In this document: positions 7,200 through 58,294 of the stretch, piece after piece | Position numbering within the stretch: the stretch's first letter is position 1 | How the letters are laid out: every line of letters begins with the position of its first letter | DNA from: a bacterium | GTDB lineage: Bacteria; Patescibacteriota; Minisyncoccia; UBA6257; GWB1-50-10 | Direction: 5' to 3' | Assembly (NCBI GenBank): GCA_021812365.1 | Contig: JAKANQ010000002.1 | Location: 16,953 to 80,952 of the forward strand | Length of the DNA stretch: 64,000 nt | Program-made: the position numbers and the translations under genes | Notes under the pieces: generated by a model | What the model saw: only the letters and a program-made list of their open reading frames with translations | The model's database searches: none | Told to the model about the DNA's origin: nothing

Positions 7200-7209
7200 T
7201 TTAATCAAA

Positions 7210-7236
7210 AAAAACCCCGTGATTCACGGGGTTTTT
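7210..7236. terminator. Bidirectional rho-independent terminator
   Basis: aaaaccccgtgattcacggggttttt hairpin between convergent dnaN and the PBP gene. Confidence 0.6.
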
Positions 7237-7245
7237 GGTTGTTTA

Positions 7246-10507: not shown

Positions 10508-10510
10508 GGA

Positions 10511-37956: not shown

Positions 37957-39525
37957 ATGAAGCAGAAGGCTCTAATTTACTGTCGCGTATCTTCCGAGAG
38001 GCAAAAAAATGAAGGCCACGGACTTGATGGTCAAGAGCATCGCTGCCGGGAATATGCGAGAAGCAAAGAATATGAAGTTGAGGAAGTGTTTCGGGATAGT
38101 TTTACTGGAGGGGGCGATTTTATGAAGCGTCCGGCTATGCGAGAGTTGCTTAATTATGTCGACAAGAATAGCCATAAAGAATACGTTGTAATTTTTGACG
38201 ATCTCAAGCGCTTTGCCCGAGACACAATCTTCCATTGGAATTTGCGACGCGAATTTCGTGCGCGCGGACTAAAACCAGAATGCCTCAATTTTAATTTTGA
38301 TGATAGCCCGGAAGGAGCTTTTGTGGAAACGGTTTTTGCCGCACAAGGTCAATTAGAACGAGAGCAAAATAAACGTCAGGTGATACAAAAACAAAAAGCC
38401 AGACTAGAAAGGGGCTATTGGCCGTTTTATCACCCGCCGGGTTATAGAGCCATCAACAATCCGATACACGGCAAACTCCTTGCGCCCGTCCAACCGGAGG
38501 CGAAGATAATCAAACAAGCTTTTGAGGGTTTTGCGTCTAACAGATTTCAGGAGCAGGTTGATGTCCAAAAATTTTTAACCCAGGAAGGTTTTGGTGGTGG
38601 ACGAAAAATATATTTGGGAATGGTGGGCAAATTATTACGGAGGGCAATTTATGCTGGCTACATAGAATATCCCGATTGGGAAGTTGAGAGGAGGGAGGGG
38701 CATCACGAGCCATTGATAAGCAAAGAAGTTTTTGCAAGGGTTCAGGAAAAGCTTTCTGGCAAGTTAAAAACTTTTTCCAGGCGCGATACTCGAGAAGATT
38801 TTGCGCTCAGGGGGTTTGTTTTATGTCCGGAGTGTTCGCAGCCATTTACCGCTTCTTGGACTACGAAAAAGCGAAAAAATTACAGAATTGGCTATTATCG
38901 CTGCAAGACGGCTGGATGCTCTCTAAAAAATAAAAATATAAACAAAACAGTTATCGATAAGCAGTTTGAAGAGCTGCTTTCGGGGATCAAGCCAAAATCG
39001 GCAATATTAAAACTAACTCAGGCAATATTTATAAAAGCTTGGAATGACCGAGTGTCCACGGCTGAAATCCGTAAAAGTGCAACGGCGAAGGAGTTGGAGG
39101 TTGTGGAAGGTGAAATAGCAGCATTGGCGCGCAGGGCAGCCAAAACGGGCAGTGAAGAGGCTCTGGGGGCTTATGAGAGGGAGATTGAGGCTCTCGGAAA
39201 GAAGGCCGCCTCTTTGCGGGAAAAGCTGGGAGGATTAGAAAAGCCAAAAATAAATTTTGAAACCGCCTTAAATATGGTTTTTGAATTTATCAAAAATCCC
39301 CACAATAAGTGGGTTAATGGAGATTTGGCAACAAAACGCCTACTCTTAAAAGTTGTTTTTGAGAGCAAGATTAGATACAGCAAAGAAAATGGATTTGAAA
39401 CCGCCAATTTAGCCCTTCCCTTAAGGGTTTTTGAGCATTTTGCGGTTTCTAAATACGCAGGTGTGGAGATGACCGGAGTTGAACCGGTGTCCAAGATACT
39501 TCCCATAGACCGTCTACAAGCTTAG
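37957..39525 (+). mobile_element. Large serine recombinase (phage-integrase type); 3' end reads through the tmRNA gene
   Basis: Resolvase catalytic N-terminus MKQKALIYCRVSSERQ. Recombinase domain. Zinc ribbon CPECSQPF...YRCKTAGCSL. Coiled-coil region. The last ~20 codons are encoded by the ssrA 3' tRNA-like domain on the opposite strand. Confidence 0.8.
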
Positions 39526-39801
39526 TCCTCTTATAGAGAGCGAATTGATTCTAATTTTAACGATTGCATACGAACCTGCTCTGTAATCGCGATTTTCAAA
39601 TATTACACCAGCGAACCCCTATGAAACCTCGGGGACTGATGCCTCACTCTTAAAGAGTGAGGAACACCATTCATTACGCAAATGCGAATGAAGGCGCTGC
39701 AACACGAGTGTTGTCAGTTACATTTTTTTGATCCTTTAACGAAGTGATCGTTTCGGCCTGCAAATCTATGAGTGGGTATATTGTCAAAGCCCAACATCCC
39801 C
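39464..39801 (-). ncRNA. ssrA: tmRNA (SsrA)
   Basis: 5' GGGGATGTTGGGCTTTGACA... 3' ...GGACACCGGTTCAACTCCGGTCATCTCCA closely parallels E. coli GGGGCUGAUUCUGGAUUCGAC... / ...GGACGCGGGUUCAACUCCCGCCAGCUCCA. 5' and 3' ends pair as an acceptor stem. Multiple internal hairpins. Immediately downstream of smpB. Confidence 0.75.
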
Positions 39802-40346: not shown

Positions 40347-41930
40347 ATGCGAGAAAAGATACTCATCGCCCTCAAGAAGCGCATTCCCGAAGATGTGCGC
40401 GTTGATGTTTCCATTGCGGAAAATAAAGCATTCGGGCATTACAGCAGCAATGTTTCATTTAAACTTGCGAAAATAAGGAATAAAGCGCCTCGCGAGATTG
40501 CGGAAGGACTCTCTCTCTCGCTCTCAAACGAAAAAGAATTTGAGAAGGTTGAGGTTGCGGGCGGCGGATTTTTGAATTTCAGACTTTCACAAAAGGTTCT
40601 TGCACATGAACTCAAGGATATTTTGAAAAAAGCTGATGCATACGGTTCGAAAAAACTGTCGAAAGCAAAACAGAAAAAGATTCAGGTTGAATATATCTCC
40701 GCAAATCCCACGGGACCGCTCACACTCGCGAACGGACGAGGTGGGTTTTTAGGAGATGCGATAGCGAACGTACTCGCAGCGGCGGGGCACAAGGTTGAGC
40801 GAGAATATTATGTGAATGATACCGGAAATCAGGTGCGTACCCTTGGCCTCTCTCTTATCGCCTCGGCGGGATTCATTCCTTTTGAAGAGACCTTCTACAA
40901 GGGGGAGTATGTGAAGGATTGGGCGCTTGCCAACAAGACAACGGTGAAGAAGTTCAAGGATAACCCTGAACATTTAGGCGGTTTGGCGGCAAACCATTTT
41001 TTGAAACTCATTAAAACGGCCATAGAAAAAAAGGCTGGAATTCATTTTGACAGGTATACCTCGGAAAAAAATGATGTGCACGGCAAGAAGTTCATTGAGA
41101 AAGCGCTCGAGCTGTTCAAAGAGCTCGGGGTGTCGTATGAAAAAGATGGCGCGTTGTGGCTTAAGACGACCGATTATGGCGATGATAAAGATAGGGTACT
41201 TGTGACAAGCGAGAAGACGCCGACATATTTCCTTGCCGACGCAGGGCATTATTTCGAGACGAAGGTGAGAGGATTTGATGAGAAGATCCTTATTTTGGGC
41301 CCCGACCACTATGGATATGTCAGTCGTATTCAGGCGGCGGCAACGATAGTCGGGCTTCCAAGTTCAAAGGTCATCATCACGCAGGCCGTCCGTCTTATAC
41401 GGGGAGGAAAGGAGGCGAAGATGTCGAAGCGAAAAGGATTATTCGTCACGTTTCAGGAATTAATTGAGGACGTTTCACCGGATGCCGCACGTTTCTTTTT
41501 CCTTATGATATCGCCCGACACGCATATGGATTTTGATCTTGACCTTGCAAAGGAAAAATCACTCAAAAATCCGGTATTTTATGCGCAGTATGCATACGTG
41601 CGCGCAGTAAGCATCATTAAAAAGACAAAAATTAAAAAAGGAAAGGAAGACCTTTCACTGTTGGGGAGCGGGGAGGACATCCACCTTATGCTAAAACTTT
41701 CCGAATTTCCTGAAATTCTTGAAGACGCGGCTGGGGATTATGCGATACATCGCATAACAAAGTACATACTTGAGCTTTCCAAGGCATTCCATAATTTCTA
41801 TGAGAAGGAACGAGTGGGTGGTGTGGATGATGAGCTTGTCCGCGCGCGCCTCGCATTGGTGGGTGCGACCGCGGTCGTATTGAAAAACGCGCTCGGTGTG
41901 CTCGGAGTGTCAACACCAAAGAAGATGTAA
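40347..41930 (+). CDS. argS: Arginyl-tRNA synthetase
   Basis: VEYISANPTGPLTLANGRGGFLGDAIANVL (ArgRS catalytic core with a degenerate HIGH). C-terminal DALR anticodon-binding domain. Confidence 0.85.
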   Translation: MREKILIALKKRIPEDVRVDVSIAENKAFGHYSSNVSFKLAKIRNKAPREIAEGLSLSLSNEKEFEKVEVAGGGFLNFRLSQKVLAHELKDILKKADAYGSKKLSKAKQKKIQVEYISANPTGPLTLANGRGGFLGDAIANVLAAAGHKVEREYYVNDTGNQVRTLGLSLIASAGFIPFEETFYKGEYVKDWALANKTTVKKFKDNPEHLGGLAANHFLKLIKTAIEKKAGIHFDRYTSEKNDVHGKKFIEKALELFKELGVSYEKDGALWLKTTDYGDDKDRVLVTSEKTPTYFLADAGHYFETKVRGFDEKILILGPDHYGYVSRIQAAATIVGLPSSKVIITQAVRLIRGGKEAKMSKRKGLFVTFQELIEDVSPDAARFFFLMISPDTHMDFDLDLAKEKSLKNPVFYAQYAYVRAVSIIKKTKIKKGKEDLSLLGSGEDIHLMLKLSEFPEILEDAAGDYAIHRITKYILELSKAFHNFYEKERVGGVDDELVRARLALVGATAVVLKNALGVLGVSTPKKM

Positions 41931-41960
41931 AAAAGAATCCCCGGATGGGGATTCTTTTTT
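41930..41960. terminator. Bidirectional rho-independent terminator
   Basis: aaaaagaatccccggatggggattctttttt. Confidence 0.65.
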
Positions 41961-42342
41961 ATTTTTCCAAGACCTCTTTTACCTTGCTTATTACATCTTC
42001 TATCTTCCAATCCGCTTTCACGAGGTAGAACACGGGTTCTGTTTCCACGACTTCCCGCATTATCTTATCATCAGGATTCAAATTGGTAAGGATGATGACG
42101 GGGACCGATTTACCCCAGTCTCCGCTTTTACGGAGTTCATCAAGCATCGTCATACCACTCATTCTAGGCATGATGATATCGAGAAGGATGAGGTCGGGTT
42201 TCTCTTGGAGTGCTATCACAAGCCCCTCTTCACCATCTTTTGCTTCAAGTGCTTTCATGCCCTCATGCCGGAGTTTTTCTACGAGGGCCATTCGTACAGG
42301 AGCATGGTCTTCGATGACGAGGATTGTTTTGGTGGTTTGCAT
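41959..42342 (-). CDS. Stand-alone response-regulator receiver (CheY-like)
   Basis: ILVIEDH...LILLDIIMPRMSGM...VPVIILT. Receiver Asp pocket. No output domain. Confidence 0.8.
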   Translation of the reverse strand: MQTTKTILVIEDHAPVRMALVEKLRHEGMKALEAKDGEEGLVIALQEKPDLILLDIIMPRMSGMTMLDELRKSGDWGKSVPVIILTNLNPDDKIMREVVETEPVFYLVKADWKIEDVISKVKEVLEK

Positions 42343-42386
42343 AGTTTCGCAATTAGCTATTGTGTTTATTATATCATTTTGATCTC

Positions 42387-45338: not shown

Positions 45339-45375
45339 CGGAAGAGTGTGGGGGGCCTCCGGTTTTTCCGAAGAG

Positions 45376-45741
45376 CTATGAGATGCGGGCAGCCTCTATC
45401 TTCTCTACGATTTCGTTGATGGGGTGCTGTGATTTCACAAAATAATCTTTTGCTCCGAGTGCGAATGCCTTCTTAATGTTCTCGTCCTCCCCAAGATTTG
45501 AGAGAACGATGACGGGGACCATTCCAAGTTCAGGATCCGCTTTTAAATCTTTCAATACGGAAAACCCGTCTTTTTTAGGAAGAATAAGATCCAAGAGAAC
45601 CAATTCCGGTTTATATGCGTGGGCAAGAGCAATCGCCGCTTCGCCGTCTTTTGCCACTTTTGTCTCAAATCCAGACTTATCCAGTTTTTCTTTGAGTACG
45701 AACGCAAGGGATTCCTCATCTTCAACAATTAAAATTTTCAT
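45376..45741 (-). CDS. Stand-alone response-regulator receiver (CheY-like)
   Basis: MKILIVEDEESLAF...LVLLDLILPKKDGFSVL...VPVIVLSNLGEDEN... Confidence 0.8.
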   Translation of the reverse strand: MKILIVEDEESLAFVLKEKLDKSGFETKVAKDGEAAIALAHAYKPELVLLDLILPKKDGFSVLKDLKADPELGMVPVIVLSNLGEDENIKKAFALGAKDYFVKSQHPINEIVEKIEAARIS

Positions 45742-45793
45742 GGCTTATGTATCTTGCCTTTATTGTAGCACAGCTATTTTCGAGCGTCATTGC

Positions 45794-47512
45794 CTATTTA
45801 TCTATCTCCGAGATGTTTGAGGTGATATATTTTTCAGCTCTTTCAATGGAACTCACGGCACGTCTTAGCAGGAATTCGAGGGTTGTCATCTCCTCTGGTG
45901 TGAGTTTCTTGTCCCCGAACGCTTCTATGGCTTTTGCAAGATCTGTCTTTGTGGTTTTGAATGCGTTTACCACGTCGCGCTGGGCGATAAGTACGCGTAA
46001 CGCGCGCCGTTTTTTTAGATTGGCATTAAGGAGATATCCCCCTGAAAAACTAAACACGAGAATTGCGATGAGGAACCAAATAAGCTCCGTTTGTGTTATA
46101 GAGAGTCCGAAAAGTGAGAGAACTGGTCTTTCTTTTACGGATATTGTCGGGGTATCGATTGGTATGCTTTGAGCTCCACGCGTATCGCTCGCGATTACGC
46201 GAACCATGTATGTTCCACTTCCAAGCGCTTTATCGAATGTGGCTGACCACGCGCCACCCGCGTCCACGTCTACAGTTTTATCAGCCAGGATATTTCCCGC
46301 ATTATTTTTGAGTGCGAGAAGTATTTTTGAGTTTGGAATTGCTGTTCCGCTCAGTCCTACCCTTCCTTCATTTGCGTACACATCTCTTGTTACCGTTGAA
46401 ATTGAGGGGGGTGCTATCGGGGTGATGGTGATATCGGCTGTTCCTTCGGTGATGTTACCACCCGCATCTTGAGCATCGATGCGTATGTGATGCGTTCCCG
46501 GGGTTTGGGGAGGAAGCCTGTATGATGTGCTTGTGGCTACCGCTATTTCGTTGCCGTCCACTAAAATATGATATTCGACAGTACTTAATGAATCCCCGCT
46601 CTCATAGGTAAGGATGGGGGAGGGATTATCGGTTGATGTTCCGAAGTCCTCCTTGATGGTGAAGGGGAGTGGCGGAACGGTATCAATCGCGAGACGGTAG
46701 TGGCTTATCGGACCCCAGCCGACATTATTCTTAAATTGAACATGAAGATACCACACGCCATCACTGAGCGCGGGGAATGTCTTGTTATCGAAGAGCCCTT
46801 CCGATCTCTGGGGGATACCCCTCGGATCTTTATTGATGAGCGTTGCAACCTCGCTTACGTCATTTGGAAGCGGCCATTGTGCGGTAAAATCAGAGGAAAG
46901 GTTGTACCATTTTTGTTGGTCCGGATAGAGGGATACTGAGATAATTGGTGCCGCGGGAAGTTTTGCGGCCACGACCGGCGGACGAGTGATTTGAGTCGGT
47001 TGTGGAGCTATTGTGGTTATTTCTCCCGTGGCCGCACTCGTGATATTCACACCCTTCGTCGCCCTCATCACATTAGTTCCACTTCCATCACTTGCGGTTA
47101 TCGCGCCGTCGGTAAAGGTGATGGTTGAACTACCGACTCCTTTCACTTTAAACACAACTCTGAATACCTCAAGAGAGGAACCGGTGAATCCATTGGATGA
47201 GCCACCAAGAAACGTTATTTTTCCCGCGTCATTCGAAAAGGTTGGCGCCTGGAGCCAAAAATTGAATACCGAATTGCTCGTATCCGTTTTTGATATTGAG
47301 AGCACGTTCGGAGAAAAGGAAATCGTGCCTTGTGCCGCATTCACTCCAACGCCTTCGGTATCCATTTTTATGTCCGCGGTAAATTCCTGACCTATTGGAA
47401 AAGCTTGTTTGTCCAGCGAGATGGAAAACGTCGCGGCGTGCGCAAAGATAGGGAGGGCCGCGAAGGCAATGCTCGCGAGAAGTACTCGTATTTTATGCAT
47501 GGAAGAAGTCAT
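45794..47512 (-). CDS. Cell-surface anchoring protein: signal peptide, cohesin-like domain, Ig-like domains, C-terminal TM anchor and cytoplasmic tail
   Basis: Signal peptide MTSSMHKIRVLLASIAFAALPIFAHA. Residues about 27-150 (ATFSISLDKQAFPIGQEFTADIKMDTEGVGVNAAQGTISFSPNVLSI...GKITFLGGSS...SLEVFRVVFKVKGVGSSTITFTDGAI) follow the cohesin beta-sandwich sequence pattern. TM helix LIWFLIAILVFSFSGGYLL near the C-terminus. Confidence 0.6.
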   Translation of the reverse strand: MTSSMHKIRVLLASIAFAALPIFAHAATFSISLDKQAFPIGQEFTADIKMDTEGVGVNAAQGTISFSPNVLSISKTDTSNSVFNFWLQAPTFSNDAGKITFLGGSSNGFTGSSLEVFRVVFKVKGVGSSTITFTDGAITASDGSGTNVMRATKGVNITSAATGEITTIAPQPTQITRPPVVAAKLPAAPIISVSLYPDQQKWYNLSSDFTAQWPLPNDVSEVATLINKDPRGIPQRSEGLFDNKTFPALSDGVWYLHVQFKNNVGWGPISHYRLAIDTVPPLPFTIKEDFGTSTDNPSPILTYESGDSLSTVEYHILVDGNEIAVATSTSYRLPPQTPGTHHIRIDAQDAGGNITEGTADITITPIAPPSISTVTRDVYANEGRVGLSGTAIPNSKILLALKNNAGNILADKTVDVDAGGAWSATFDKALGSGTYMVRVIASDTRGAQSIPIDTPTISVKERPVLSLFGLSITQTELIWFLIAILVFSFSGGYLLNANLKKRRALRVLIAQRDVVNAFKTTKTDLAKAIEAFGDKKLTPEEMTTLEFLLRRAVSSIERAEKYITSNISEIDK

Positions 47513-47528
47513 TGATTTTATTATACAT

Positions 47529-50500
47529 TTATTTATTTAGCGTGCGGGCAAAGATACTGAGGTCCTGAATATCAATCACTCCATCGCCATTAAAATCCAA
47601 ACTTTTTCTTGTTGCGGGGTCTTTTGAAAGCCAGCGCGCGAGGAAGATGCTGAGGTCGCTTGCGTTCACCACCCCATCGCCGTTCAGATCTGTTTTTGGC
47701 ACAAAAAGATTAGTCACGAGAAATGTGCGCTCGACTGAGGAATCGCTTCTTTCTCCACTGCTGTTCGATTGCCATACGCGCACGGTGTGAGTGCCGAGCT
47801 GAAGGTCCAATGTGTTAAAGGCTATCTTGTATTCTCCGGAACTTCCCGCAACTACAATATTTGGAATTGATTTTCCATCGATAGATGCTTCGATGGTATT
47901 TCCAGGCGAGGCAAACCCCGTGATTCCCAAGAACCCTCCTTTAAGAACCGCCTGCTGCGTAAAGCCGAGCGTAGGCGGCAGAAACACATCTCGCACAATG
48001 AGGGTTTGGTTCGCGTTGATGGGATACACTTTTGTTTGCGTGGGGCGTCCGCTTTCATCAGTCGCCGAGAGGAAGTATTGCTGTATGCCAGGCGTGGTGT
48101 CGTTGAAACGAATTGAGAACGCTCCATCCGCTCGTGCGGTAGCGCCTCGGCGTACCGGAATATTTCCATTTGAGACGCCCAATATGGTTAGTTTTGCGCC
48201 TGGAAATGCGGTGCCCGAAAAGATCACCGTTGAACGAATGAGTGCGGGCTCACCTCCTGCACTTACCGTCATTACGGGCGTGCTTGAGAAGGTGACGGTC
48301 TGTGTTGACGATACATCAAGCGTGGTTGAGGCGGTATCAAGGAGGCTGAGCGTCACCGTTTCCGCAACTGTATCGGTGATTGTTTTTGTGCCTATGCCGT
48401 TCGTAACGGTGACAATTCCACCGCCAACTGCCGAGCCTGAGACGACAAGGGTAACGCTATTGTTGTAGGTGGTATCAAGATTTCCACTATTGTCTTCCAC
48501 TCGTATTGTGACTGTGGTATTCGTTCCTACGAGAGTGTCATTGGGTTTTATTATCGTGAATCGAGTTGCAATTATGGGGGTGTTGGAAACAGTCACTGAT
48601 TGTGATGCATCCGCAATTCCCACCGCGCCATCCGGCGTCGATGAATTATCCGACGCGGTTATGGTCCATGTGCCCACCGCCGTGTCATAATACCAGAATG
48701 ATGCGGTTGATGCTCCGTCCGCTATTGTTCTAGATGCGATAGGGCTTCCGCCGCTTGCGCCGCCGTAGAAAGCACTCGAAGTACTATTTGAATACATATA
48801 GAATGTATTACTACCCGCCGTTACCAAATTTCCAAAACTGTCCTTTCTTGTCACCGTGTATCCGAGCCGCGTGCCCGCGGTCATATTGCCGGGGTTATCA
48901 ATAAGGAATTGTGAGGTGGTTGCGGGGGATACCGTCACCGATTGCGATGCGTCCGCGATTCCCGTCGCGCCATCGGGCGCTACCGCGTTGTCGGACGCGG
49001 TGACAACCCACGTTCCCGCTTTTCCTTCCGAGTACCAGAATTGAGTTGCGGAACTGCCATCCGTGATCTGTACCGATGTTATCTGGATGCCCCCACTCAA
49101 TGCGCTATAGAATGCGCCAAGCCCTCCTGTTGCATTTGAATACAAATGAATCGTGTCCGTACCCGCCGTTACCAAATTTCCAAAACTGTCCTTTCTTGTC
49201 ACCGTGTATCCGAGCCGCGTGCCCGCGGTCATATTGCCGGGGTTATTGAGAATGAATTGTGCGGTCGGTCCCGTGGTGAAGGTAACGGTCTGTGTTGACG
49301 ATACATCAAGTGTGGTTGAGGCTGTCGCGGTAAGCGAGAGTGTTACTGTTTCCGCTTTCGTGTCGGTGATGTTGACCGTGCCCACACCATTTACGATGGT
49401 GAGTACTACGCCATTTTGAGGAGTTGCCAATCCCGATGTTTTTAGCGTGATATCGGTGCTGTTGTTATACGTGGTATCAAGATTTCCTGAGTTATCCTGT
49501 GCTTGCACTGTGACCGGTATTGTACTGCCCACCACGCCGTCAGTCGGCTTTAGGATGACTATGCGAGTTGCGATGATTGGCGCGGCATTTACCGTCACCG
49601 ATTGCGATGCGTCCGCGATTCCCGTCGCGCCATCCGGCGCTACGGCATTGTCGGAAGCAGTTATGGTCCATGTGCCAACTTGTTCATCGTAGTACCAAAA
49701 ATTCGCGGAGGATGAGCCATTTGTGATTACCATTGAAGTCACGAGATTGCCGCCCGCACTCGCGTCATAGAATGCCTTTGTCGCTCCCGTTGAGTTCGAG
49801 TAAAGGTGCGCGGTATCGCTGCCTACGGTCACTGTATTTCCGAATATGTCTTGTCTTGTCACCGTGTATCCGAGCCGCGTGCCCGCGGTCATATTGCCGG
49901 GGTTATTGAGAATGAATTTTCCTGTAGATGCCGGTACGATCACGATTGCGTTCGTGCCGTCAATTATCCCCGTCGCGCCATCCGGTGCTACCGCGTTGTC
50001 GGACGCGGTTATGGTCGCGGAGCCTGCAAGTTCGTCGTAGTACCAGAATTGCGCGGATGAGGAGCCTGGGAGTATCGCGACGTTTGTTATCGTGGTGCTT
50101 CCTGTCGCACTATCGAAGAATTTTTTCATCCCCCCCGCGGAACTGCTATAGAGATATGCGGTGCTTGTACCTACGGTAGAAAGATTTCCGAATTGGTCCT
50201 TTCGCGTGACGGAATAGTCCAAGCGTGTTCCTGCGACCATCGATGTCTGATTTGTGAGTGAGAATTGAGCTGCGGCTCCCGGAGTTATCATCACAATGCT
50301 CGTTCCATCTTTTATCCCCGTCGCGCCATCCGGTGCTACCGCGTTGTCGGACGCGGTTATGGTCGCGGAGCCTGCAAGTTCGTCGTAGTACCAGAATTGG
50401 GCGGATGAGGTTCCATTTTGAACTGTTATTGAGGTGATGATGTTTCCTCCGCTCGCCGCATCGTAAAATCGTTTCGCACTCCCCGCGGAATCGCTATAAA

Positions 50501-52661
50501 GATAGAATGTCTCACTTCCCATCGTTTTCAGGTTGTTGTATTGATCTTTTCGTGTGACGGCGAACATTCCTCTTGTCCCCGCAACGGTACTACTTACGCC
50601 CGACAAGAAGAGCTGTGCAGTCGCTCCGGGTGAGAATATCACGTCTTGTGTCGAGCTTACATCAAGGCCCGTTCCTTGCGTATCGGAGAGTGAGAGGTGG
50701 ACCGTTTCCGCGACCATGTCGGAGATAGTGGTAGTACCTACGCCGTTTACGATATTCACGAGGCCGCCACCCGTCGCGGAACCGGATTTCAAAAGGGTCA
50801 CATCTTGCTGATATGTTGTTGCAATGGCCCCCGCATTATTTTGTGCTTCTATGGTGACCATTATCGGCGCGTCGACTGTGCCGTTGGCGGGCGGGAGAAT
50901 GACGAATTTTGTGGGGGTTATTGGTTTCGGCATTCCAAGTTGAAATGCGCCGAATCCAGTTATACCTCCCGCTGCCGTGCTTACGGATGTTCTTGTCCCC
51001 ACCGTTGGATAGGACCATGCCGAACCTGCATATTGTCCGACAATAAGGTCTCCTGTATTTACCCCGGAATCAAGGTCCCCAGGATTAACGAAGGTGAAGA
51101 TCGCGCTGTAATTATCAAATGCTATTGCCGAGCTTGTGGCTGTCCAATACCGATTCACGCTTTTTGTTCCGTCTATATTGGAAGCGGCGATATTCGGATG
51201 GTCTCCTGCTGTTGTGCTGAATGTCAGGTCTCCGCCGCTTGTTACATTACCGAACGCAATGCTTACGGGAGCGTAGTTTGATGAGTCGCCAATTTCGAAT
51301 ATCTTACTCGTTGCTCCCACACCAATATATTTTCTAAGATTGCCGATGATGTGTCCCGATGTGCGTGCTACGTTTCCCGTTCCGCTTATATAGATATCGT
51401 TTGCGCCCGTTACGACATTGCCCGAGGTTAGTGTGAGTGTTCCATCAACGCGCGTACCTGCGCCGGAGAGCGTGGCTGCCCCCGCGCCTTTATTTATCGT
51501 AAGATTTGAATAGGTGAGGGCGGCAACTGTTTGCGCAATGCCCGCAACGTATTCCACCGTCGTGCCCGCAGAGATGTTTCTTGTGGTAAAGGAGGGGAAT
51601 GCGGTGGCTGAACTTGAGCTGCCCAGCACGAATGTTCCCGACGCGAGATTCAGAGTTCCTGTCCCCGTAAGCTGGAAACCGCCATCATTGAATATGCTGT
51701 TTGCAATCGTTGCTCCGATGGTAAACGGTTTTGTGCCAACCGATTTCGCAGCATTCAAGGTAACTCCATTTGCGTTTTCAATCAAAACGCCACCACTGCC
51801 AGGCCACGGCGAGATGAATTCACTGCCGGTCGTTTGCGCCGCGGAACCTTTGTACTCCAATGTTGATGCTGTGCCTGGACTGAGTGTACCCGTAAGAATG
51901 GTCGTTGCCGATCCCTGCATTGAGAGCTTGCCACTTACCGCCGTCGTGCCTGTTATGAATGTCTTTGCACCGCTTCCCGAAAGCGTAAGATTTGCATATG
52001 TTGTCGGTTTAAGCGATTGGTCGGCGCCATCGTAATTCACGATGTTTCCCGCTGCGGTTGCGGTGAGTGTTACATTTGCCGCGGGTGTGAACGTTCCACT
52101 TATGTTCACCACCGCGTTGGTGCCCTGTGTCCATATTGCGGTTCCTCCGGTCCTCATATAATTTCCGTTGAGATATATGGTTCCGTTATTGGTAACCGTT
52201 TTACCGGCTGAATCAATATCATTGTTGATTGTGAGATTGGCGGATGAAAGGAAAGAAAAGTTTTGAGCCGCAAGTATGATGCTATTTATGGTACCGTTCC
52301 CATCTATGGTTTGCCCCTTAGTATTCATTTTTATCGTTGCCGTTCCGCCATTCACATCGCCATTCACCGCGATGTTGCCGTTTTCGGTGATAATTGCCGT
52401 GCTATTTATGTTCAGTGTGGCGCCCGAATTTACCGTGAGGCCTGCATTGGTGATGTTCGTACCGATGGTCACGCTGTTGCCGCCCGTTGTGGCAATGATC
52501 GCGGAGTCGTTATTGGTAGGAGCAATGCCCCCTATCCACGTTCCGCCGGCCGTCCAATTACCCCCCGTTGCGGTGCTTGTTCTTACTGCCGCATCCGCAG
52601 TCGGCACAAGAAGCACCGATGCAAAAAGCATCGCTGTACCGAGTAATAGAGTCTTTTTCAT
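47529..52661 (-). CDS. Giant secreted repeat protein (1710 aa) with beta-helix-like N-region, nested tandem Ig-like repeats and C-terminal type-I dockerin
   Basis: Signal peptide MKKTLLLGTAMLFASVLLVPTADA. G/T/N-rich N-terminal region. Six copies of an about 100-aa repeat (...FWYYDE..GTWTITASDNAVAPDGATGI...), plus three copies of a larger repeat (PIIATR..I.KP.DG.VG...). C-terminal DLNGDGVVNASDLSIFLARWL...DFNGDGVIDIQDLSIFARTL is a textbook duplicated dockerin Ca-binding segment. Confidence 0.7.
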   Translation of the reverse strand: MKKTLLLGTAMLFASVLLVPTADAAVRTSTATGGNWTAGGTWIGGIAPTNNDSAIIATTGGNSVTIGTNITNAGLTVNSGATLNINSTAIITENGNIAVNGDVNGGTATIKMNTKGQTIDGNGTINSIILAAQNFSFLSSANLTINNDIDSAGKTVTNNGTIYLNGNYMRTGGTAIWTQGTNAVVNISGTFTPAANVTLTATAAGNIVNYDGADQSLKPTTYANLTLSGSGAKTFITGTTAVSGKLSMQGSATTILTGTLSPGTASTLEYKGSAAQTTGSEFISPWPGSGGVLIENANGVTLNAAKSVGTKPFTIGATIANSIFNDGGFQLTGTGTLNLASGTFVLGSSSSATAFPSFTTRNISAGTTVEYVAGIAQTVAALTYSNLTINKGAGAATLSGAGTRVDGTLTLTSGNVVTGANDIYISGTGNVARTSGHIIGNLRKYIGVGATSKIFEIGDSSNYAPVSIAFGNVTSGGDLTFSTTAGDHPNIAASNIDGTKSVNRYWTATSSAIAFDNYSAIFTFVNPGDLDSGVNTGDLIVGQYAGSAWSYPTVGTRTSVSTAAGGITGFGAFQLGMPKPITPTKFVILPPANGTVDAPIMVTIEAQNNAGAIATTYQQDVTLLKSGSATGGGLVNIVNGVGTTTISDMVAETVHLSLSDTQGTGLDVSSTQDVIFSPGATAQLFLSGVSSTVAGTRGMFAVTRKDQYNNLKTMGSETFYLYSDSAGSAKRFYDAASGGNIITSITVQNGTSSAQFWYYDELAGSATITASDNAVAPDGATGIKDGTSIVMITPGAAAQFSLTNQTSMVAGTRLDYSVTRKDQFGNLSTVGTSTAYLYSSSAGGMKKFFDSATGSTTITNVAILPGSSSAQFWYYDELAGSATITASDNAVAPDGATGIIDGTNAIVIVPASTGKFILNNPGNMTAGTRLGYTVTRQDIFGNTVTVGSDTAHLYSNSTGATKAFYDASAGGNLVTSMVITNGSSSANFWYYDEQVGTWTITASDNAVAPDGATGIADASQSVTVNAAPIIATRIVILKPTDGVVGSTIPVTVQAQDNSGNLDTTYNNSTDITLKTSGLATPQNGVVLTIVNGVGTVNITDTKAETVTLSLTATASTTLDVSSTQTVTFTTGPTAQFILNNPGNMTAGTRLGYTVTRKDSFGNLVTAGTDTIHLYSNATGGLGAFYSALSGGIQITSVQITDGSSATQFWYSEGKAGTWVVTASDNAVAPDGATGIADASQSVTVSPATTSQFLIDNPGNMTAGTRLGYTVTRKDSFGNLVTAGSNTFYMYSNSTSSAFYGGASGGSPIASRTIADGASTASFWYYDTAVGTWTITASDNSSTPDGAVGIADASQSVTVSNTPIIATRFTIIKPNDTLVGTNTTVTIRVEDNSGNLDTTYNNSVTLVVSGSAVGGGIVTVTNGIGTKTITDTVAETVTLSLLDTASTTLDVSSTQTVTFSSTPVMTVSAGGEPALIRSTVIFSGTAFPGAKLTILGVSNGNIPVRRGATARADGAFSIRFNDTTPGIQQYFLSATDESGRPTQTKVYPINANQTLIVRDVFLPPTLGFTQQAVLKGGFLGITGFASPGNTIEASIDGKSIPNIVVAGSSGEYKIAFNTLDLQLGTHTVRVWQSNSSGERSDSSVERTFLVTNLFVPKTDLNGDGVVNASDLSIFLARWLSKDPATRKSLDFNGDGVIDIQDLSIFARTLNK
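48370..50600. repeat. Coding tandem DNA repeats (about 330-345 bp units, about 6 copies) inside the giant gene
   Basis: cgtgtatccgagccgcgtgcccgcggtcatattgccggggtt recurs at about 48856, 49201 and 49861. Repeated shadow ORFs on the opposite strand. Confidence 0.6.
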
Positions 52662-52734
52662 TACTTTAATTGTACTAAATTAGAAAGTTAGAATGTGCAT
52701 ATTTCTGTCTCTATTCCTCCTGTTCTTCCGAATC

Positions 52735-52760
52735 AAAAAACGGCGCGACGGCCGTTTTTT
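52735..52760 (-). terminator. Rho-independent terminator after the anti-sigma-like gene
   Basis: Minus-strand reading aaaaaacggccgtcgcgccgttttt. Confidence 0.5.
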
Positions 52761-52768
52761 GGCTCTGC

Positions 52769-53464
52769 TTATCTCGCCCTTTCCCACGGTCTTATCTCCC
52801 GTGCTATGAAGACCTGTTCATTTTCATAGGCGCCGATAAGTTTTACTTCTGAACCTACGGCACGGAGCCCATTTTTTCTCCAATCAGCGTCGTCTTCTAT
52901 GATGACCCACTCATTGTGAGAGAAGTCTTCCAGTATGAAGATGTCATCATTTACGATTTCGGTTATGGTGCCTGACAAGAGTCCGAGTCCGGGACTGTTC
53001 CAGACCGCGAGCTCGTTATGGGGGAGATTGGTATACGCCGGAATATAGCGCAGAAGCGCTTCATCAATGCGCTTACCCGCGCCGAACATATAGAATACTG
53101 TTCCAAGTATCACGCTCACCAAAAGTATAATGGCGAAGAATACGAGCGTGGCGTAGCGATAACCGGTTTTGGTTTGTCGCACTATCGCGTAAGTGAGACC
53201 AAGGAAAAGCGCCGCGGCAAAGAGCCAGAGATAGGGGAAGACCGTGGTCACATATGCCCAAAGAGTTTTTCCAAGGTATTCATAAATATCCCAATCATTA
53301 TTATGAACGATGTGGAGGAGGGTGCTGACCGCGAGCGCTCCAATGAGCATGGAAATGACCACAAGTGTCCAGAGCACGATATTGCGTATCACAAACTTCC
53401 AACGCGCCACCGGAGTTATGTTCTTTTCTTCTATTGTTTTCAATACGTTATCGCTTATCGACAT
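52769..53464 (-). CDS. Polytopic membrane protein, putative anti-sigma factor (co-transcribed downstream of ECF sigma, 17-nt overlap)
   Basis: Four TM segments and a C-terminal extracytoplasmic domain. Call is by position only. Confidence 0.35.
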   Translation of the reverse strand: MSISDNVLKTIEEKNITPVARWKFVIRNIVLWTLVVISMLIGALAVSTLLHIVHNNDWDIYEYLGKTLWAYVTTVFPYLWLFAAALFLGLTYAIVRQTKTGYRYATLVFFAIILLVSVILGTVFYMFGAGKRIDEALLRYIPAYTNLPHNELAVWNSPGLGLLSGTITEIVNDDIFILEDFSHNEWVIIEDDADWRKNGLRAVGSEVKLIGAYENEQVFIAREIRPWERAR

Positions 53465-54059
53465 ATGAGTGTGTTCTATTTTGCAGCTCCTCTCGTAATT
53501 TCACCTTTGCTCGATTGATGAGTGTTCCAACAGTGCCGACCGGTTTCTTCAAAATATCCGAGATCTCTTCATAGCTTTTTTCTTCAAGAAATTTGAGAAT
53601 GAGCACCTCGCGGTATTTTTCAGATATATTGGAAAGCGCGGCACGGACACTCTCGCTTTCCATTTTCCTCAACATCTCTTCCTCAAGGTCCGATGAGTCC
53701 GCGATGTTCTCGAGAAAAAAATGTTCTTCTTCGGTGCGGGGAGTGAGCGGTAAGCGGCTTATCTTTCTCAATGCATTTATCGCTTCATTATGGGCGATGC
53801 GGTATATCCAGGATGAGAATTTGAGTGAAGCATCGAAGTTGTTCAAATGCTCGTAGGTCTTGATGAAGGTTTCTTGGACCACGTCTTCCGCGTCTTCCCT
53901 TGAGCATAGGATGATGCGTTGTACGTAGCGAATGAGTCTTTGCTCATATCGCTGCATAAGGTAGAGATAACGCTGCTTATTTTGAATTGTGAGAGCAACC
54001 AACTCCTCATCGGTTTTCTCTGAGTATGGGTTATGTTCGTTCATTCGCGGCGCGCTCAT
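53448..54059 (-). CDS. ECF-type sigma-70 family RNA polymerase sigma factor
   Basis: Region 2 EDAEDVVQETFIKTYEHLNNFD. Region 4 HTH YREVLILKFLEEKSYEEISDILKKPVGTVGTLINRAKVKLRE. Confidence 0.75.
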   Translation of the reverse strand: MSAPRMNEHNPYSEKTDEELVALTIQNKQRYLYLMQRYEQRLIRYVQRIILCSREDAEDVVQETFIKTYEHLNNFDASLKFSSWIYRIAHNEAINALRKISRLPLTPRTEEEHFFLENIADSSDLEEEMLRKMESESVRAALSNISEKYREVLILKFLEEKSYEEISDILKKPVGTVGTLINRAKVKLREELQNRTHSYVDKR

Positions 54060-54159: not shown

Positions 54160-57100
54160 ATGCTCAAAAATACGGAAAAATTCTCGTTGCCCGAGGTTGA
54201 GGAAAAGGTTCTTGCATTTTGGGACGACAACAAGATTTTTGAGAAATCGCTTTCCAAAAATAAGCCCGCAAAGGGGAGGGGTGGCAAGAAATTCGTGTTC
54301 TATGAGGGGCCGCCGACCGCCAATGGGCGACCCGGCATCCATCACGTTCTCGCGCGCTCCTATAAAGACGTGGTCCTTCGCTATAAGACCATGTCCGGTT
54401 TTTCCGTGCCTCGCAAAGGAGGGTGGGACACCCATGGACTTCCCGTCGAACTTGAGGTTGAGAAGGCGTTGGGATTGAAATCAAAGAAGGAGATTGAGAA
54501 GTATGGCGTCGCCGCATTCAACAAGAAGTGCCGTGAGTCAGTATGGAAGTACAAGGATGAGTGGGAAAAGCTTACGAGGCGAATGGGATTCTGGCTTGAT
54601 ATGGAGAATCCTTATATCACCTATAAGAATGAATACATGGAAACGATCTGGTGGACGTTCTCACAGATCGCGGAAAAGAAACTTCTCTATAAGGGACATA
54701 AGATAGTGCCATGGTGCACGCGCTGCGGCACCGCGCTTTCTTCGCACGAGCTCGCGCTCGGATACAAGGAGGTGGAGGACACCTCCGTCTATGTGAAGTT
54801 CAAAGTGAAGAAGGGGCAGCATATCGGCAAATCACTCGTTGCCGACAATAAGACCTATATTCTTTCGTGGACGACGACGCCGTGGACACTTCCCGGAAAT
54901 GTCGCACTCGCGGTAGGCGAGGGAATTGAGTATGCCGCCATTGAGGCAGGCGAGGGGAGTAAGAAAGAAACACTTATTCTCGCGTCGCCGCGTCTTGGTA
55001 TTTTGGATATGCCGCATACTGTTCTTGGAACGATGAAAGGGAAGGAGTTGGTTGGTGTTGAGTACGAACCTCTTTTTTCCATTGATGTATTTATCCATGG
55101 GTCCGCGAAAGATGTTTCCTATAGGGTATACCCCGCGGATTTTGTGACTACTACCGATGGTACGGGGGTCGTGCATACCGCGGTGATGTATGGTGAGGAT
55201 GATTACAAACTTGGCAAGAAGTTTGGATTGCCCGAGGTGCATACCGTCAACGAGCAAGGAATGTTCGTGGAGGCTGTGCCTGAGTTTGCTGGTATGTATG
55301 TGAAGGCGAAAGATACGGAAGAAAAGATACTTGCCGCACTTTCACACAAGAACCTTTTATTGAAGAAGGAGCTTTATGCGCATGAATATCCCTTTTGCTG
55401 GCGTTGCAGTTCGCCGCTTCTCTATTATGGCCGCCACTCTTGGTTCATTGAGATGAGCAAGTTGAGAACCTCGCTTCAGAAGGAGAATAAGAATATCAAC
55501 TGGATTCCCGAGAATATTCGCGAAGGGCGATTTGGAGAGTGGATTCGTGAGGCGAAGGATTGGGCCATCTCGCGTGAACGGTATTGGGGGACACCGCTTC
55601 CCATATGGGAGTGTGAATCGTGCAAAACAGTCAGGGTCATTGGCGGCGTGAAGGACCTTGAGAGTACGCAAAAGAAGAGCACGAATCGTTATCTATTGAT
55701 TCGTCATGGAGAGGCGGAGAATAATGTGAAGAATGTGGTGAGTTCGTGGCCGGAAAAGGCAAGGTATCATCTGACGCCGAAGGGTAGGGCTGCGGTATTG
55801 AAGCTTGCAAAAAAACTTTCGCGAACGAAGATAGATATTATCTTTGCTTCGGATCTTTTACGCACGAAAGAGACCGCCAACCTTTTGAAGGAGGAGCTCG
55901 AGGTTCCCGTTATCTTTGATGAACGGCTCCGTGAGATAAACGTGGGCGAATTCAATGGGTCGCTGATAAAGGAATATCAGGATTTCTTCGGCACAAAGAT
56001 GGAAAAATTCACCAAGGCGCCTGAAGGTGGTGAGACGCTCACTGAACTGCGTACGCGTATGTTCGGATTTGTGAAGGAGATGGAAAAGAAGTATAGCGGT
56101 AAGACTATCGCAATCGTAAGTCATGAAGATCCGCTCTGGCTATTAACGAGCGCGATGCAGGGCTGGACTGATGAACAGATCATCGCGGAGAAGGAGGGAC
56201 ATCTCGGCGCATTCCTTGGCGCGGGCGAGATGCGCGAAGAGGTATTTCGCGTATTGCCTCGTGATGAGTCGGGAATGTTCGATTTGCATAAGCCGTACAT
56301 CGATTCGGTGGTCTTTCCGTGCAAGAAGTGCGGAAGCGAGATGAAAAGAATTCCCGAAGTGGCGGATGTGTGGTTCGATTCAGGGGCTATGCCGTTCGCG
56401 CAAGCTCACTATCCATTTGAGCATTCGAAGAGTTTGGATTTTCCCGCCGATTACATTTCGGAAGGAATGGATCAGACGCGCGGATGGTTCTATACGCTTC
56501 TTGCGGTCTCCACGCTTCTAGGGCGCGGGACTCCGTATAAGAATGTCATCTCTCTCGGACTTATCTTGGATAAGAATGGACAGAAGATGTCCAAGTCAAA
56601 GGGTAATATCGTGAGTCCGTGGGATATGATACAAAAGTATGGCATTGATGTGACACGATGGTATTTCTATACGGTGAATCCTCCGGGTGAGGCGAAGAAG
56701 TTCGATGAGTTGGAACTTGCGAAGGTCTCTCGCCAGTTCTTCGCGCTCATCTATAACTCGTTTGTGTTCTTCGACCTCTACAGCGATAGGAAATATATTC
56801 CAAAGACGACGCCGAAAGCGACCAATATTTTGGATAAGTGGATAATGGCGCGCCTTCATGAGACGATATCGGAGGCGACGGAACATATGGAGAAGTATGA
56901 GATGGGGGATGCGGCGCGTCTTATCGAGGAATTTGTGGGAGACCTTTCGCGTTGGTACATTCGTCGTTCGCGCCGCCGACTCCAAAAGCCGGAGTCTAAG
57001 AAGGAGTTTGAAGCGGTCTCGACAGTGTTTGGGTATACACTGATACAACTCGCGAAACTTATGGCGCCATTCTCTCCGTTTTTCTCGGAGGCGCTCTACA

Positions 57101-57684
57101 AGTCATTAGCGCAGAATGCAAAGGCATCCGTGCATCTTGAGGATTGGCCGAAGGCGGAGAAGCGGCTGATAGACGAGAGCTTGATTGAGGGGATGGCGGA
57201 GGTGCGTCTTGCGGCAAGCGTTGCGCTCGCGAAACGCGCGGAGAAGGGAATAAAAGTACGCCAGCCGCTCGCAGAACTGAAACTGAAGAGTATAAAACTT
57301 GAGGGAAAGAAGGCGCTTCTCGAGATATTGAAGGATGAGGTGAATGTAAAGAAGGTCTCATTCAACAAAGACCTCGCGGAAGACGTGGAACTTGATACGA
57401 ACATCACGCATGAGCTTGTGGAGGAAGGATTACTTCGTGAATTGGTGCGTATGGTGCAGGACTTGCGCCAGGATGCGGGATTCTCACCAAAAGACGCCAT
57501 TGTGCTGCACGTTGATGTTCCTGAGGAATTGAGTTTTGTCTTGCGCAAGAATGAGGCGTTCGCAAAACGAGAGGTGAATGCCAAGGTCATTGAGTTCAAG
57601 CGCGTTGAACGATTTGATGCGGAGATAGCCTCGAAACTCGGTGATTTCAATGTCTGGCTCGCGGTACGGAAGAATAAGAAATAG
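54160..57684 (+). CDS. ileS: Isoleucyl-tRNA synthetase with an inserted histidine-phosphatase (PGAM-like) domain
   Basis: HIGH-region PPTANGRPGIHHVLARS. KMSKSKGN. Editing (CP1) domain. Type-2-like C-terminus. An extra about 200 aa between CESCKT and CKKCGS carries LLIRHGEAENN and IVSHEDP, the two catalytic His motifs of the histidine phosphatase superfamily. Confidence 0.9.
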   Translation: MLKNTEKFSLPEVEEKVLAFWDDNKIFEKSLSKNKPAKGRGGKKFVFYEGPPTANGRPGIHHVLARSYKDVVLRYKTMSGFSVPRKGGWDTHGLPVELEVEKALGLKSKKEIEKYGVAAFNKKCRESVWKYKDEWEKLTRRMGFWLDMENPYITYKNEYMETIWWTFSQIAEKKLLYKGHKIVPWCTRCGTALSSHELALGYKEVEDTSVYVKFKVKKGQHIGKSLVADNKTYILSWTTTPWTLPGNVALAVGEGIEYAAIEAGEGSKKETLILASPRLGILDMPHTVLGTMKGKELVGVEYEPLFSIDVFIHGSAKDVSYRVYPADFVTTTDGTGVVHTAVMYGEDDYKLGKKFGLPEVHTVNEQGMFVEAVPEFAGMYVKAKDTEEKILAALSHKNLLLKKELYAHEYPFCWRCSSPLLYYGRHSWFIEMSKLRTSLQKENKNINWIPENIREGRFGEWIREAKDWAISRERYWGTPLPIWECESCKTVRVIGGVKDLESTQKKSTNRYLLIRHGEAENNVKNVVSSWPEKARYHLTPKGRAAVLKLAKKLSRTKIDIIFASDLLRTKETANLLKEELEVPVIFDERLREINVGEFNGSLIKEYQDFFGTKMEKFTKAPEGGETLTELRTRMFGFVKEMEKKYSGKTIAIVSHEDPLWLLTSAMQGWTDEQIIAEKEGHLGAFLGAGEMREEVFRVLPRDESGMFDLHKPYIDSVVFPCKKCGSEMKRIPEVADVWFDSGAMPFAQAHYPFEHSKSLDFPADYISEGMDQTRGWFYTLLAVSTLLGRGTPYKNVISLGLILDKNGQKMSKSKGNIVSPWDMIQKYGIDVTRWYFYTVNPPGEAKKFDELELAKVSRQFFALIYNSFVFFDLYSDRKYIPKTTPKATNILDKWIMARLHETISEATEHMEKYEMGDAARLIEEFVGDLSRWYIRRSRRRLQKPESKKEFEAVSTVFGYTLIQLAKLMAPFSPFFSEALYKSLAQNAKASVHLEDWPKAEKRLIDESLIEGMAEVRLAASVALAKRAEKGIKVRQPLAELKLKSIKLEGKKALLEILKDEVNVKKVSFNKDLAEDVELDTNITHELVEEGLLRELVRMVQDLRQDAGFSPKDAIVLHVDVPEELSFVLRKNEAFAKREVNAKVIEFKRVERFDAEIASKLGDFNVWLAVRKNKK

Positions 57685-57695
57685 AGAGCGAACAG

Positions 57696-57720
57696 GAATC
57701 CCGCGAATGCGGGATTTTTT
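57696..57720 (+). terminator. Rho-independent terminator
   Basis: gaatcccgcgaatgcgggatttttt. Confidence 0.65.
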
Positions 57721-57784
57721 GTTGACGCAGTGTGGGTTTGGTAGTAGCGTAATCGAAGCACATAGACTGCCAAGGAGGTGCCCT

Positions 57785-58294
57785 GTGAATGATAGAATCT
57801 TCGGTTTGAACATGACGTCTCTTGAGACCAAGGTGAAGGAGCTCGATGAGCTCATTCGCGCATACACGCGGTCCGAGAGGGAGTTGTGGCAGCTTGTTCC
57901 GTACCTTGCGCTTCAGGCGGATGGACGGAGCGGATATTCTTCGCAATATTCCCTTGCGTATAGTGTGGGGCTTTGGAGAATTGAGCATTCACTGGACAGA
58001 TTTAGTTCGTACACGGTCGCGGTTGACTGCGCGACGGGCGAGCTTGTGTCTATTCCTAATACGCATGAGAAGGCCCACAAGGAAGATGTGCTCCGATGCG
58101 CTTCTCGGCTGCGCGAGTTTGATGCAGCTGCGGTCGTCCTCGAACTTCGAAAGGAGGGGAAGGCTTCTTATTCGAAGTGTTATGACGAGGCGGAGATCAA
58201 GGCGTGGCGTCTCAGGACTCAGGAGGAGTACGATCTGAGAGAGGTCTTCATACGAAAAGGTGAGGTACCGATATTCGGATTTTGTTGGGATTGA
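57785..58294 (+). CDS. Hypothetical protein (GTG start after AAGGAGG RBS)
   Basis: RBS aaggagg at 57772-57778, 6 nt before GTG 57785. About 170 aa. No motif recognised. Confidence 0.4.
   Translation: MNDRIFGLNMTSLETKVKELDELIRAYTRSERELWQLVPYLALQADGRSGYSSQYSLAYSVGLWRIEHSLDRFSSYTVAVDCATGELVSIPNTHEKAHKEDVLRCASRLREFDAAAVVLELRKEGKASYSKCYDEAEIKAWRLRTQEEYDLREVFIRKGEVPIFGFCWD

Follow-up and report, generated by a model that had tools for sequence, protein, structure and literature searches.

What a phosphatase might be doing inside an aminoacyl-tRNA synthetase (aaRS) is the question raised by the ileS gene of a patescibacterial genome (GTDB lineage Patescibacteriota; Minisyncoccia; UBA6257; GWB1-50-10). 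The gene lies on contig JAKANQ010000002.1 of GenBank assembly GCA_021812365.1, in a stretch of 64,000 nucleotides (nt) (forward-strand positions 16,953 to 80,952; here, the window, from whose first letter coordinates are counted). An earlier note, made from the sequence alone, had described its product, an isoleucyl-tRNA synthetase (IleRS), as carrying a histidine phosphatase (HP) domain between the halves of its zinc knuckle. Here, we report that the HP is found in related genomes either within IleRS or as a separate gene just upstream of ileS. That a complete, strongly conserved HP occurs in these two places suggests that a phosphatase and a core translation enzyme are partners in a way not described before.

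A histidine phosphatase within the zinc knuckle

The ileS product (1174 amino acids [aa]; Table 1) matched the ileS model TIGR00392 at 897.7 bits (cut-off, 621.4) in an NCBIfam scan of the window protein. Pfam recovered the type-2 C-terminal domains Anticodon_1 and DUF5915, together with a tRNA-synt_1 domain (PF00133) broken into residues 17 to 507 and ~718 onward. In the AlphaFold model of the whole protein, the mean predicted local distance difference test (pLDDT) was 91.3 and the predicted template-modelling score (pTM) 0.82; the top Foldseek matches of the IleRS body were P. megaterium IleRS2 (8c8u/8c8w) and T. thermophilus IleRS (1ile). Conservation was measured in a main alignment of 179 full-length homologues (MAFFT) and in a second alignment of 112 sequences. 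The editing motifs (TTTPWT and GTGVVH..D) and the KMSKS motif were invariant in the second, and K809, S811, and K812 were kept in 178 to 179 of the 179. By its domains and motifs, the host enzyme is a complete type-2 IleRS, canonical outside the insert.

The earlier note had put the enzyme about 200 aa above the usual length, with the surplus between the motifs CESCKT and CKKCGS. Both statements held: insert-free IleRS relatives were 954 to 1047 aa long, and the interval named (55630 to 56330; aa 491 to 723) lies exactly between the two cysteine pairs. Alignment to solved IleRS fixed the insertion point, with query residues 504 to 706 mapping onto 480 to 487 of the T. thermophilus enzyme and 475 to 486 of P. 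megaterium IleRS2; ~200 residues thus stand between the knuckle halves, where the solved enzymes have a loop of 6 to 10 residues. The same alignment paired C485, C488, C721, and C724 with C461, C464, C502, and C504 of T. thermophilus IleRS, marking a putative Cys4 zinc motif, and these cysteines were kept in 167, 160, 166, and 165 of the 179 homologues, respectively. The connective peptide 3 (CP3) subdomain of the T. thermophilus enzyme bears a zinc-binding motif; CP3 is peripheral and structurally variable, and its topology differs among IleRSs (PMC7191050). In one inserted-form IleRS (locus L050), all four CP3 cysteines were replaced (WVSEDGSETE... and ...FQSRSGKS), which suggests that the zinc knuckle is dispensable once the phosphatase sits there.

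We give next to no credence to an artefact or a selfish element, be it an assembly chimera, a frameshifted gene pair, an intein, or a mobile insertion. Such an origin could draw on an insert position that varies by lineage and on discordant phylogenies of HP and IleRS, but the artefact reading is already refuted by independent assemblies. One of these (locus L088) encodes a protein of equal length and 95% identity (ratio of nonsynonymous to synonymous substitution rates [dN/dS], 0.03). A chimera or frameshift was also rejected on the uninterrupted open reading frame (ORF) and on GC content and skew, which were uniform across the insert. A survey of related IleRS, which the earlier note had proposed, found the insert throughout the best 120 database matches (95 to 55% identity; all PF00133 plus PF00300; ~1160 to 1200 aa), the named sources of which were Patescibacteria, Paceibacterota, Jorgensenbacteria, and Minisyncoccia. 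A 316-aa query over both junctions returned 296 cluster representatives (50% identity) at E ≤ 1e-30, and among the 150 of those clusters listed, most aligned in one stretch through both junctions. Identical junctions are shared by hundreds of homologues. No direct or inverted repeats flanked the insert. Its edges read ...DLESTQKKSTNRY... and ...FRVLPRDESGMFDLH..., with neither an N-terminal Cys/Ser block nor a C-terminal HN-[CST]; because splicing motifs are missing and a free-standing gene encodes the same protein, the intein was rejected.

The insert matched the His_Phos_1 profile (PF00300) that the earlier note had suggested as a check (E = 1.3e-35; 123.3 bits; Pfam gathering score, 21.7). 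The two signatures first noticed, LLIRHGEAENN (aa 512 to 522) and IVSHEDP (aa 652 to 658), were located as quoted, and the description of a complete phosphatase module agrees with a full domain in which every catalytic residue is conserved. R515, H516, and H655 were present in 178 of the 179 homologues and N522 in 158, R568 was at least 95% conserved, and E592 was at least 95% conserved in the main alignment and at least 90 to 95% over both. The invariant positions of the 112-sequence alignment were R515, H516, S564, R568, E625, and H655, and R568, E592, and H655 aligned with catalytic residues of PhoE and PspA. In comparison with the L088 protein, the insert had a dN/dS of 0.030, and the remainder of IleRS 0.036; the insert is under purifying selection like the IleRS body. 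In the AlphaFold model, pLDDT was 92 to 97 over most of the insert and fell to ~80 at aa 671 to 690, and the linkers were not disordered; the domain modelled alone gave a pLDDT of 89.9 and a pTM of 0.87. Foldseek placed the isolated domain (probability, 1.00; template-modelling score [TM], 0.70 to 0.79) with 1ebb, 4qih, 6s2q, 4ij6, and 1e58. The fold matches included PhoE/YhfR (1ebb), the glucosyl-3-phosphoglycerate phosphatase GpgP (4qih), PspA (4ij6), CobC, and cofactor-dependent phosphoglycerate mutases (dPGMs), and the nearest solved sequences were PspA (4ij5; E = 7e-17) and PhoE (1h2e; E = 4e-16). On this evidence, the insert is a genuine histidine phosphatase of branch 1, belonging to the small PhoE/PspA/GpgP-like type (~190 aa), complete and, as predicted from its residues and fold, apparently catalytically competent.

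Very improbably, the fold would act without catalysis, serving dimerisation, ligand sensing, or a scaffold that regulates or localises IleRS. Many members of the family are dimeric, the two or three copies carried by some IleRS chains (see below) could pair intramolecularly, and the high linker pLDDT suggests a fixed docking on CP3. Pseudo-enzymes, however, normally lose their catalytic residues, whereas here all five are at least 95% conserved among deeply diverged sequences and are also kept by every extra copy.

A separate observation concerns the class I signature of the host enzyme, which has the noncanonical form GxHH (G59-I-H-H62). This form occurred in 142 of the 179 homologues, and HxGH occurred in 33. 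The best PDB sequence match was 8c8w, the P. megaterium IleRS2 "mupirocin hyper-resistant HIGH motif mutant." Taken with the signature, this match suggests that GxHH-type IleRSs from the candidate phyla radiation (CPR) may be mupirocin hyper-resistant by nature, a suggestion that leans on the 2023 IleRS2 work.

Linkage to ileS and movement among insertion sites

An alignment of the HP alone, which carries no bias toward IleRS, was scanned against one genome per GTDB species, giving 258 pattern matches, of which 213 were confirmed; the linkage counts rest on the 80 loci returned. In 79 of the 80, the HP was linked to ileS, either inserted in it (37 loci) or carried by a gene of its own, directly upstream and in the same orientation (42 loci), and the single unlinked locus was the most distant match of the 80. 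Taxon labels are unreliable for many of the metagenome-assembled genomes involved. Where the HP gene was separate, the order was argS-HP-ileS and ileS was insert-free. The HP lay 12 to 20 nt downstream of argS. All 42 separate genes ended in a stop codon; the distance from that stop to the first possible ileS start was at most 23 nt in 24 of the 42, often 1 to 4 nt. A search with the insert alone recovered free-standing Patescibacteria HP proteins (~190 aa; 41 to 46% identical to the insert), and on independent metagenome contigs the free HP again lay between argS and an insert-free ileS, usually a few bases before ileS. Synteny of argS with (HP)-ileS was seen in at least 60 related loci.

Distant HP relatives of 225 aa from other phyla were not adjacent to ileS. 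These free-standing relatives dominated the search for HP fusions to other synthetases, in which no other aaRS domain occurred among the 120 proteins listed. Small ORFs that might be further partners, in the argS-HP gap or after ileS, had no similarity between loci. The linkage partly shows that this HP subfamily is a dedicated IleRS partner in Paceibacteria-type Patescibacteria.

The inserted and upstream-gene states were interspersed on neighbour-joining trees of HP and of IleRS. Counted on 855 IleRS columns from 65 loci, with the phosphatase excluded, the parsimony minimum was 6 to 7 state changes in 100/100 bootstrap replicates (label-shuffle mean, 21.6); all trees were neighbour-joining only, and the figure of at least 6 switches is a bootstrap-stable estimate of that method, not a reconciled phylogeny. 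Some pairs were discordant: locus L042 (upstream gene) and locus L044 (inserted) shared 79% identity in HP but 45% in the N-terminal part of IleRS.

Within IleRS, the CP3 junction position was identical in all inserted forms examined, and alignment together with PF00133 profile breaks (at 265 to 270, 285, 319, and >408) resolved four insertion sites. Rare variants carried one to three HP copies per IleRS, with catalytic residues retained in all; every extra copy kept RH(G/A)..N..R..E..H. A second copy followed the DLHxxxD element of CP3 (~query 716) in proteins P0250, P0282, and P0281, and a copy lay in the loop after HYPF (~query 757) in P0281 and P0284. The site between the stem-contact fold and the anticodon-binding domain (~query 882) held the sole copy of P0256, the second of P0213 and P0284, and the third of P0281. 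Four sites, one to three copies, and a split form suggest that selection appears to act on proximity to, or stoichiometry with, IleRS, not on one exact geometry.

Another IleRS, P0217, carried three foreign domains: an IS200-like Y1 transposase domain within the editing domain (aa 340 to 461), a phosphatase in CP3 (aa 680 to 854), and a GNAT domain in the post-HYPF loop (aa 935 to 1063). On this example, CPR IleRS looks like a place where inserted domains accumulate, a hot spot.

It is rather unlikely, though worth weighing, that the HP is a hitch-hiker: a housekeeping enzyme (for example, a Parcubacteria phosphoglycerate mutase [PGM] that has gone undetected) with no mechanistic tie to IleRS, held beside ileS by ancestral synteny, moved repeatedly by local rearrangements into permissive surface loops of that gene, and kept there neutrally. 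The insert stands closest to small-molecule phosphatases and mutases, and the archaeal dPGM model NF038349 was the top NCBIfam match. PGM has gone undetected in some Parcubacteria; Jaffe et al. (2020) reported it absent in several shallow clades, maybe as too divergent for the threshold of the hidden Markov model (PMC7304191). The variable CP3 topology, the other foreign domains inside CPR IleRS, and the 6 or more switches between split and inserted states fit this account as well. Against it, the dPGM thresholds were missed (NF038349, 99.7 of 225 bits; TIGR01258 [pgm_1], 34.4 of 81.7), and all PRK dPGM models scored far under their cut-offs. The insert also lacks dPGM-type residues: it has E592-I-N-V and H655-E-D where the substrate-binding residues of dPGMs, as in E. 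coli GpmA, are R-H-Y after the catalytic Glu and G-N after the second His, and its positions 656 and 657 varied among the 179 sequences. The separate HP gene lies closer to argS, yet the HP was inside ileS in 37 of the 80 loci and fused to argS in none, an asymmetry that argues against neutrality. A terminal fusion needs the loss of only one stop codon, yet no N-terminal HP-IleRS fusion was seen (earliest HP start in a full-length protein, residue 423); the insertions were all internal, at four independent sites and in one to three copies, with catalytic residues intact throughout.

Gene neighbourhood in the window and at other loci

In the window, a minus-strand block of ~12 kb (42387 to 54059) parts argS from ileS and breaks the conserved argS-(HP)-ileS order (Table 1). 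On the far side of argS, positions 37472 to 39801 look like an integrated element at or beside ssrA. A window ORF at 41896 to 42456 appeared spurious, and no second phosphatase paralogue was found in the 64 kb. A plus-strand ORF overlapping the end of ileS (57641 to 58294) had no Pfam match and no similarity to the small post-ileS ORFs of other lineages; L088 has a 195-aa ORF at the same place.

Table 1. Features of the ileS locus and its surroundings in the window
Feature	Position (nt)	Strand	Basis or remark
ileS, type-2 IleRS bearing the insert	54160..57684	+	Single uninterrupted ORF, 1174 aa
Class I signature, GxHH form (G59-I-H-H62)	54334..54345	+	aa 59-62
CP3 zinc knuckle, first CxxC (C485/C488)	55612..55623	+	CESCKT, aa 485-490, nt 55612-55629
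His_Phos_1 insert plus linkers, aa 505-705	55672..56274	+	PF00300 at aa 512-673 (nt 55693-56178)
RHG motif: R515, nucleophile H516, G517 (putative)	55702..55710	+	LLIRHGEAENN, nt 55693-55725
R568, second phosphate-binding Arg (putative)	55861..55863	+	SDLLRTKETA motif; aligns with conserved Arg of PhoE, PspA
E592, putative proton donor	55933..55935	+	RLREINVG motif; aligns with PhoE/PspA catalytic Glu
H655, second catalytic His (putative)	56122..56124	+	IVSHEDP, nt 56113-56133
CP3 zinc knuckle, second CxxC (C721/C724)	56320..56331	+	CKKCGS, aa 721-726, nt 56320-56337
KMSKS loop, aa 809-813, 3' of insert	56584..56598	+	K809, S811, K812 conserved
argS	40347..41930	+	Pfam Arg_tRNA_synt_N, tRNA-synt_1d, DALR_1
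CHASE/PAS histidine kinase	42387-45338	-	Within 12-kb block
Cohesin/Big_13 protein	45794-47512	-	Within 12-kb block
Highly repetitive Thr/Ser/Gly-rich surface protein, 1710 aa, dockerin-like C terminus	47529-52661	-	
Membrane protein	52769-53464	-	No Pfam match; within 12-kb block
ECF-type sigma factor	53448-54059	-	Within 12-kb block
LOOT RNA match	37472-37592	-	
Large serine recombinase ORF	37957-39525	+	Overlaps one tmRNA end
tmRNA gene (ssrA)	39463-39801	-	Tag DNTRVAAPSFAFA

Elsewhere, other genes occur around the cluster. In the Moraniibacteria-type locus L003, a NUDIX hydrolase gene and a 23S_rRNA_IVP-family gene lie between HP and ileS (8630 to 9109 and 9519 to 10196), and a zeta-toxin/AAA_33 kinase-like gene (13424 to 13933) overlaps the ileS stop codon; NUDIX genes recur close to the argS-HP-ileS cluster in other loci. 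In locus L007, a defence/mobile island (6621 to 11419) with EcoRI-type methylase, AbiU2-like HEPN, PemK toxin, GmrSD/HNH, and NYN genes stands directly downstream of HP, at the usual place of ileS.

Proposed function and significance

Each part of the protein has known counterparts. The broad-specificity phosphatase PhoE/YhfR of Geobacillus stearothermophilus (1h2e/1ebb) and the metal-independent phosphoserine phosphatase PspA/iPSP1 of Hydrogenobacter thermophilus (4ij5) are branch-1 enzymes of ~200 aa like the insert, with the same RHG...R...E...H set and a short cap (E, ~1e-16; TM, up to 0.79). Identity to them is only ~25 to 30%, however, the PspA equivalog cut-off was missed (79.5 of 350 bits), and the insert has motifs of its own (N-x-Y before RHG, and SSWPE); they are free-standing metabolic enzymes, whereas this HP is nested in, or operonic with, IleRS. 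Type-2 IleRSs (8c8u/8c8w, 1ile) have the same domains, CP3 cysteines, editing and KMSKS motifs, and C terminus as the window IleRS, with a short knuckle loop in place of the ~200-aa enzyme domain.

A catalytic domain embedded in IleRS has a precedent in NF040702 (ileS_w_GNAT). The window IleRS scored 326 bits against its cut-off of 1999 and had no acetyltransferase Pfam match, and P0217, which carries both a GNAT and a phosphatase, has the GNAT, a different enzyme family, in a different loop. In the RNase H/acid phosphatase PRK07238 (Rv2228c type), a CobC/PhoE-like phosphatase is joined to a nucleic-acid enzyme; the model matched the insert at 76 bits, under its cut-off of 326, but this is an end-to-end fusion with another partner enzyme. 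The insertions of class Ia synthetases (the CP1 editing domain and the leucine-specific domain of leucyl-tRNA synthetase) likewise sit within loops of the Rossmann-fold catalytic domain. These either work on the aminoacyl moiety or serve in tRNA binding, and none of them is known to be a phosphatase.

With a little more confidence than doubt, we favour an active phosphomonoesterase functionally coupled to IleRS, for which an obligate partnership is the best reading. Made as a separate protein from the argS-HP-ileS operon or as an internal domain of IleRS, the HP would work as its family does: H516 would attack a phosphomonoester to form a phospho-histidine intermediate, R515, R568, and H655 would hold the phosphate, and E592 would serve as the general acid that protonates the leaving group. 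The HP would hydrolyse a small phosphorylated compound or nucleotide-type phosphoester, the removal of which would benefit the isoleucylation cycle, while IleRS itself would presumably work normally. Candidate substrates are a nucleotide product or by-product, a pyrophosphate-type compound, and a phosphorylated inhibitor; taken singly, each substrate is unlikely.

Several findings weigh against this partnership. The insert fell below every NCBIfam equivalog cut-off (for the alpha-ribazole phosphatase CobC, 82.8 of 162.9 bits), so that the curated models assign no substrate. The conserved translation block (infC-rpmI-rplT, smpB, argS, ileS, recO) could by itself hold the HP beside ileS. CP3, being variable (PMC7191050), may merely tolerate inserts, and GNAT and transposase-like domains also occur inside such IleRSs. 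Frequent switching between split and inserted forms fits a function that needs no covalent linkage.

The target could also be a macromolecule, the HP stripping phosphate from tRNA or protein as a built-in repair or antitoxin module. We regard this as quite improbable, and the same holds for the targets it would have: a 3'/2'-phosphate or pyrophosphate at the CCA end, or phospho-Ser/Thr/His that a toxin kinase has put on IleRS or a translation factor. Precedents exist: SixA, Sts-1, and PGAM5 are protein phosphatases within the superfamily, aaRSs are inactivated by HipA/HipT-type kinases, and toxSAS enzymes pyrophosphorylate tRNA 3' ends. The subfamily is exclusively tied to an aaRS within a translation gene cluster, and its ileS-linked standalone proteins are basic (median isoelectric point, 9.74), but CPR proteins are basic in general, which makes this charge weak evidence. 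The cap and length are of the small-molecule type, with 62 residues from E592 to H655, a spacing that we take to be near that of PhoE. The best matches were PhoE, PspA, and GpgP, and the SixA model reached 26 bits against a cut-off of 74.5. PADLOC defence models matched neither the insert nor the standalone protein, no member of the histidine phosphatases is known to act on RNA ends, and an enzyme repairing all tRNAs need not be specific to IleRS.

A broader extension of the coupled phosphomonoesterase is put forward tentatively, as possible but on the doubtful side: across a major radiation of bacteria, the IleRS-linked HP would add to translation an accessory activity that has so far escaped notice and that must act beside IleRS. 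In one version, it might clear tRNA(Ile) or IleRS of a phosphate that blocks it and so serve as built-in repair or antitoxin; in another, it might break down an inhibitor or product of isoleucylation that is phosphorylated. Selection for proximity would then have driven the repeated hopping of the HP between the upstream gene and the four sites in IleRS.

Aminoacyl-tRNA synthetases are among the best-studied enzymes, and to our knowledge no phosphatase activity is known for any of them. A full-text literature search found no description of the IleRS-phosphatase architecture, and a 2026 preprint with domain annotation for 96,219 IleRS sequences mentions neither a phosphatase nor Patescibacteria. 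Public databases hold the architecture under the labels "isoleucine--tRNA ligase" or "class I tRNA ligase family protein." The earlier note had called the insertion unusual; this stands in that it is undescribed, but the insertion is the norm in a large part of Patescibacteria (the 296 clusters). The parts, type-2 IleRS and histidine phosphatase families, are known; it is their combination, and the hopping between a gene and four sites, that appears to be new.

A conserved phosphatase within IleRS would surprise a specialist, and genome annotation would gain, since many such proteins are named only "class I tRNA ligase family protein." The repeated insertion of one domain into different loops of the same essential enzyme is a natural example useful for work on domain-insertion tolerance and for protein engineering, and, because split and fused forms occur in nature as matched pairs, the function can be tested directly. 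The hosts are reduced, episymbiotic bacteria. That a strongly conserved, apparently active HP goes with IleRS throughout hundreds of Patescibacteria lineages implies that some phosphorylated molecule is of importance to isoleucylation in these hosts. It might be an enzyme bearing phosphate, the damaged end of a tRNA, a metabolite, or a nucleotide by-product.

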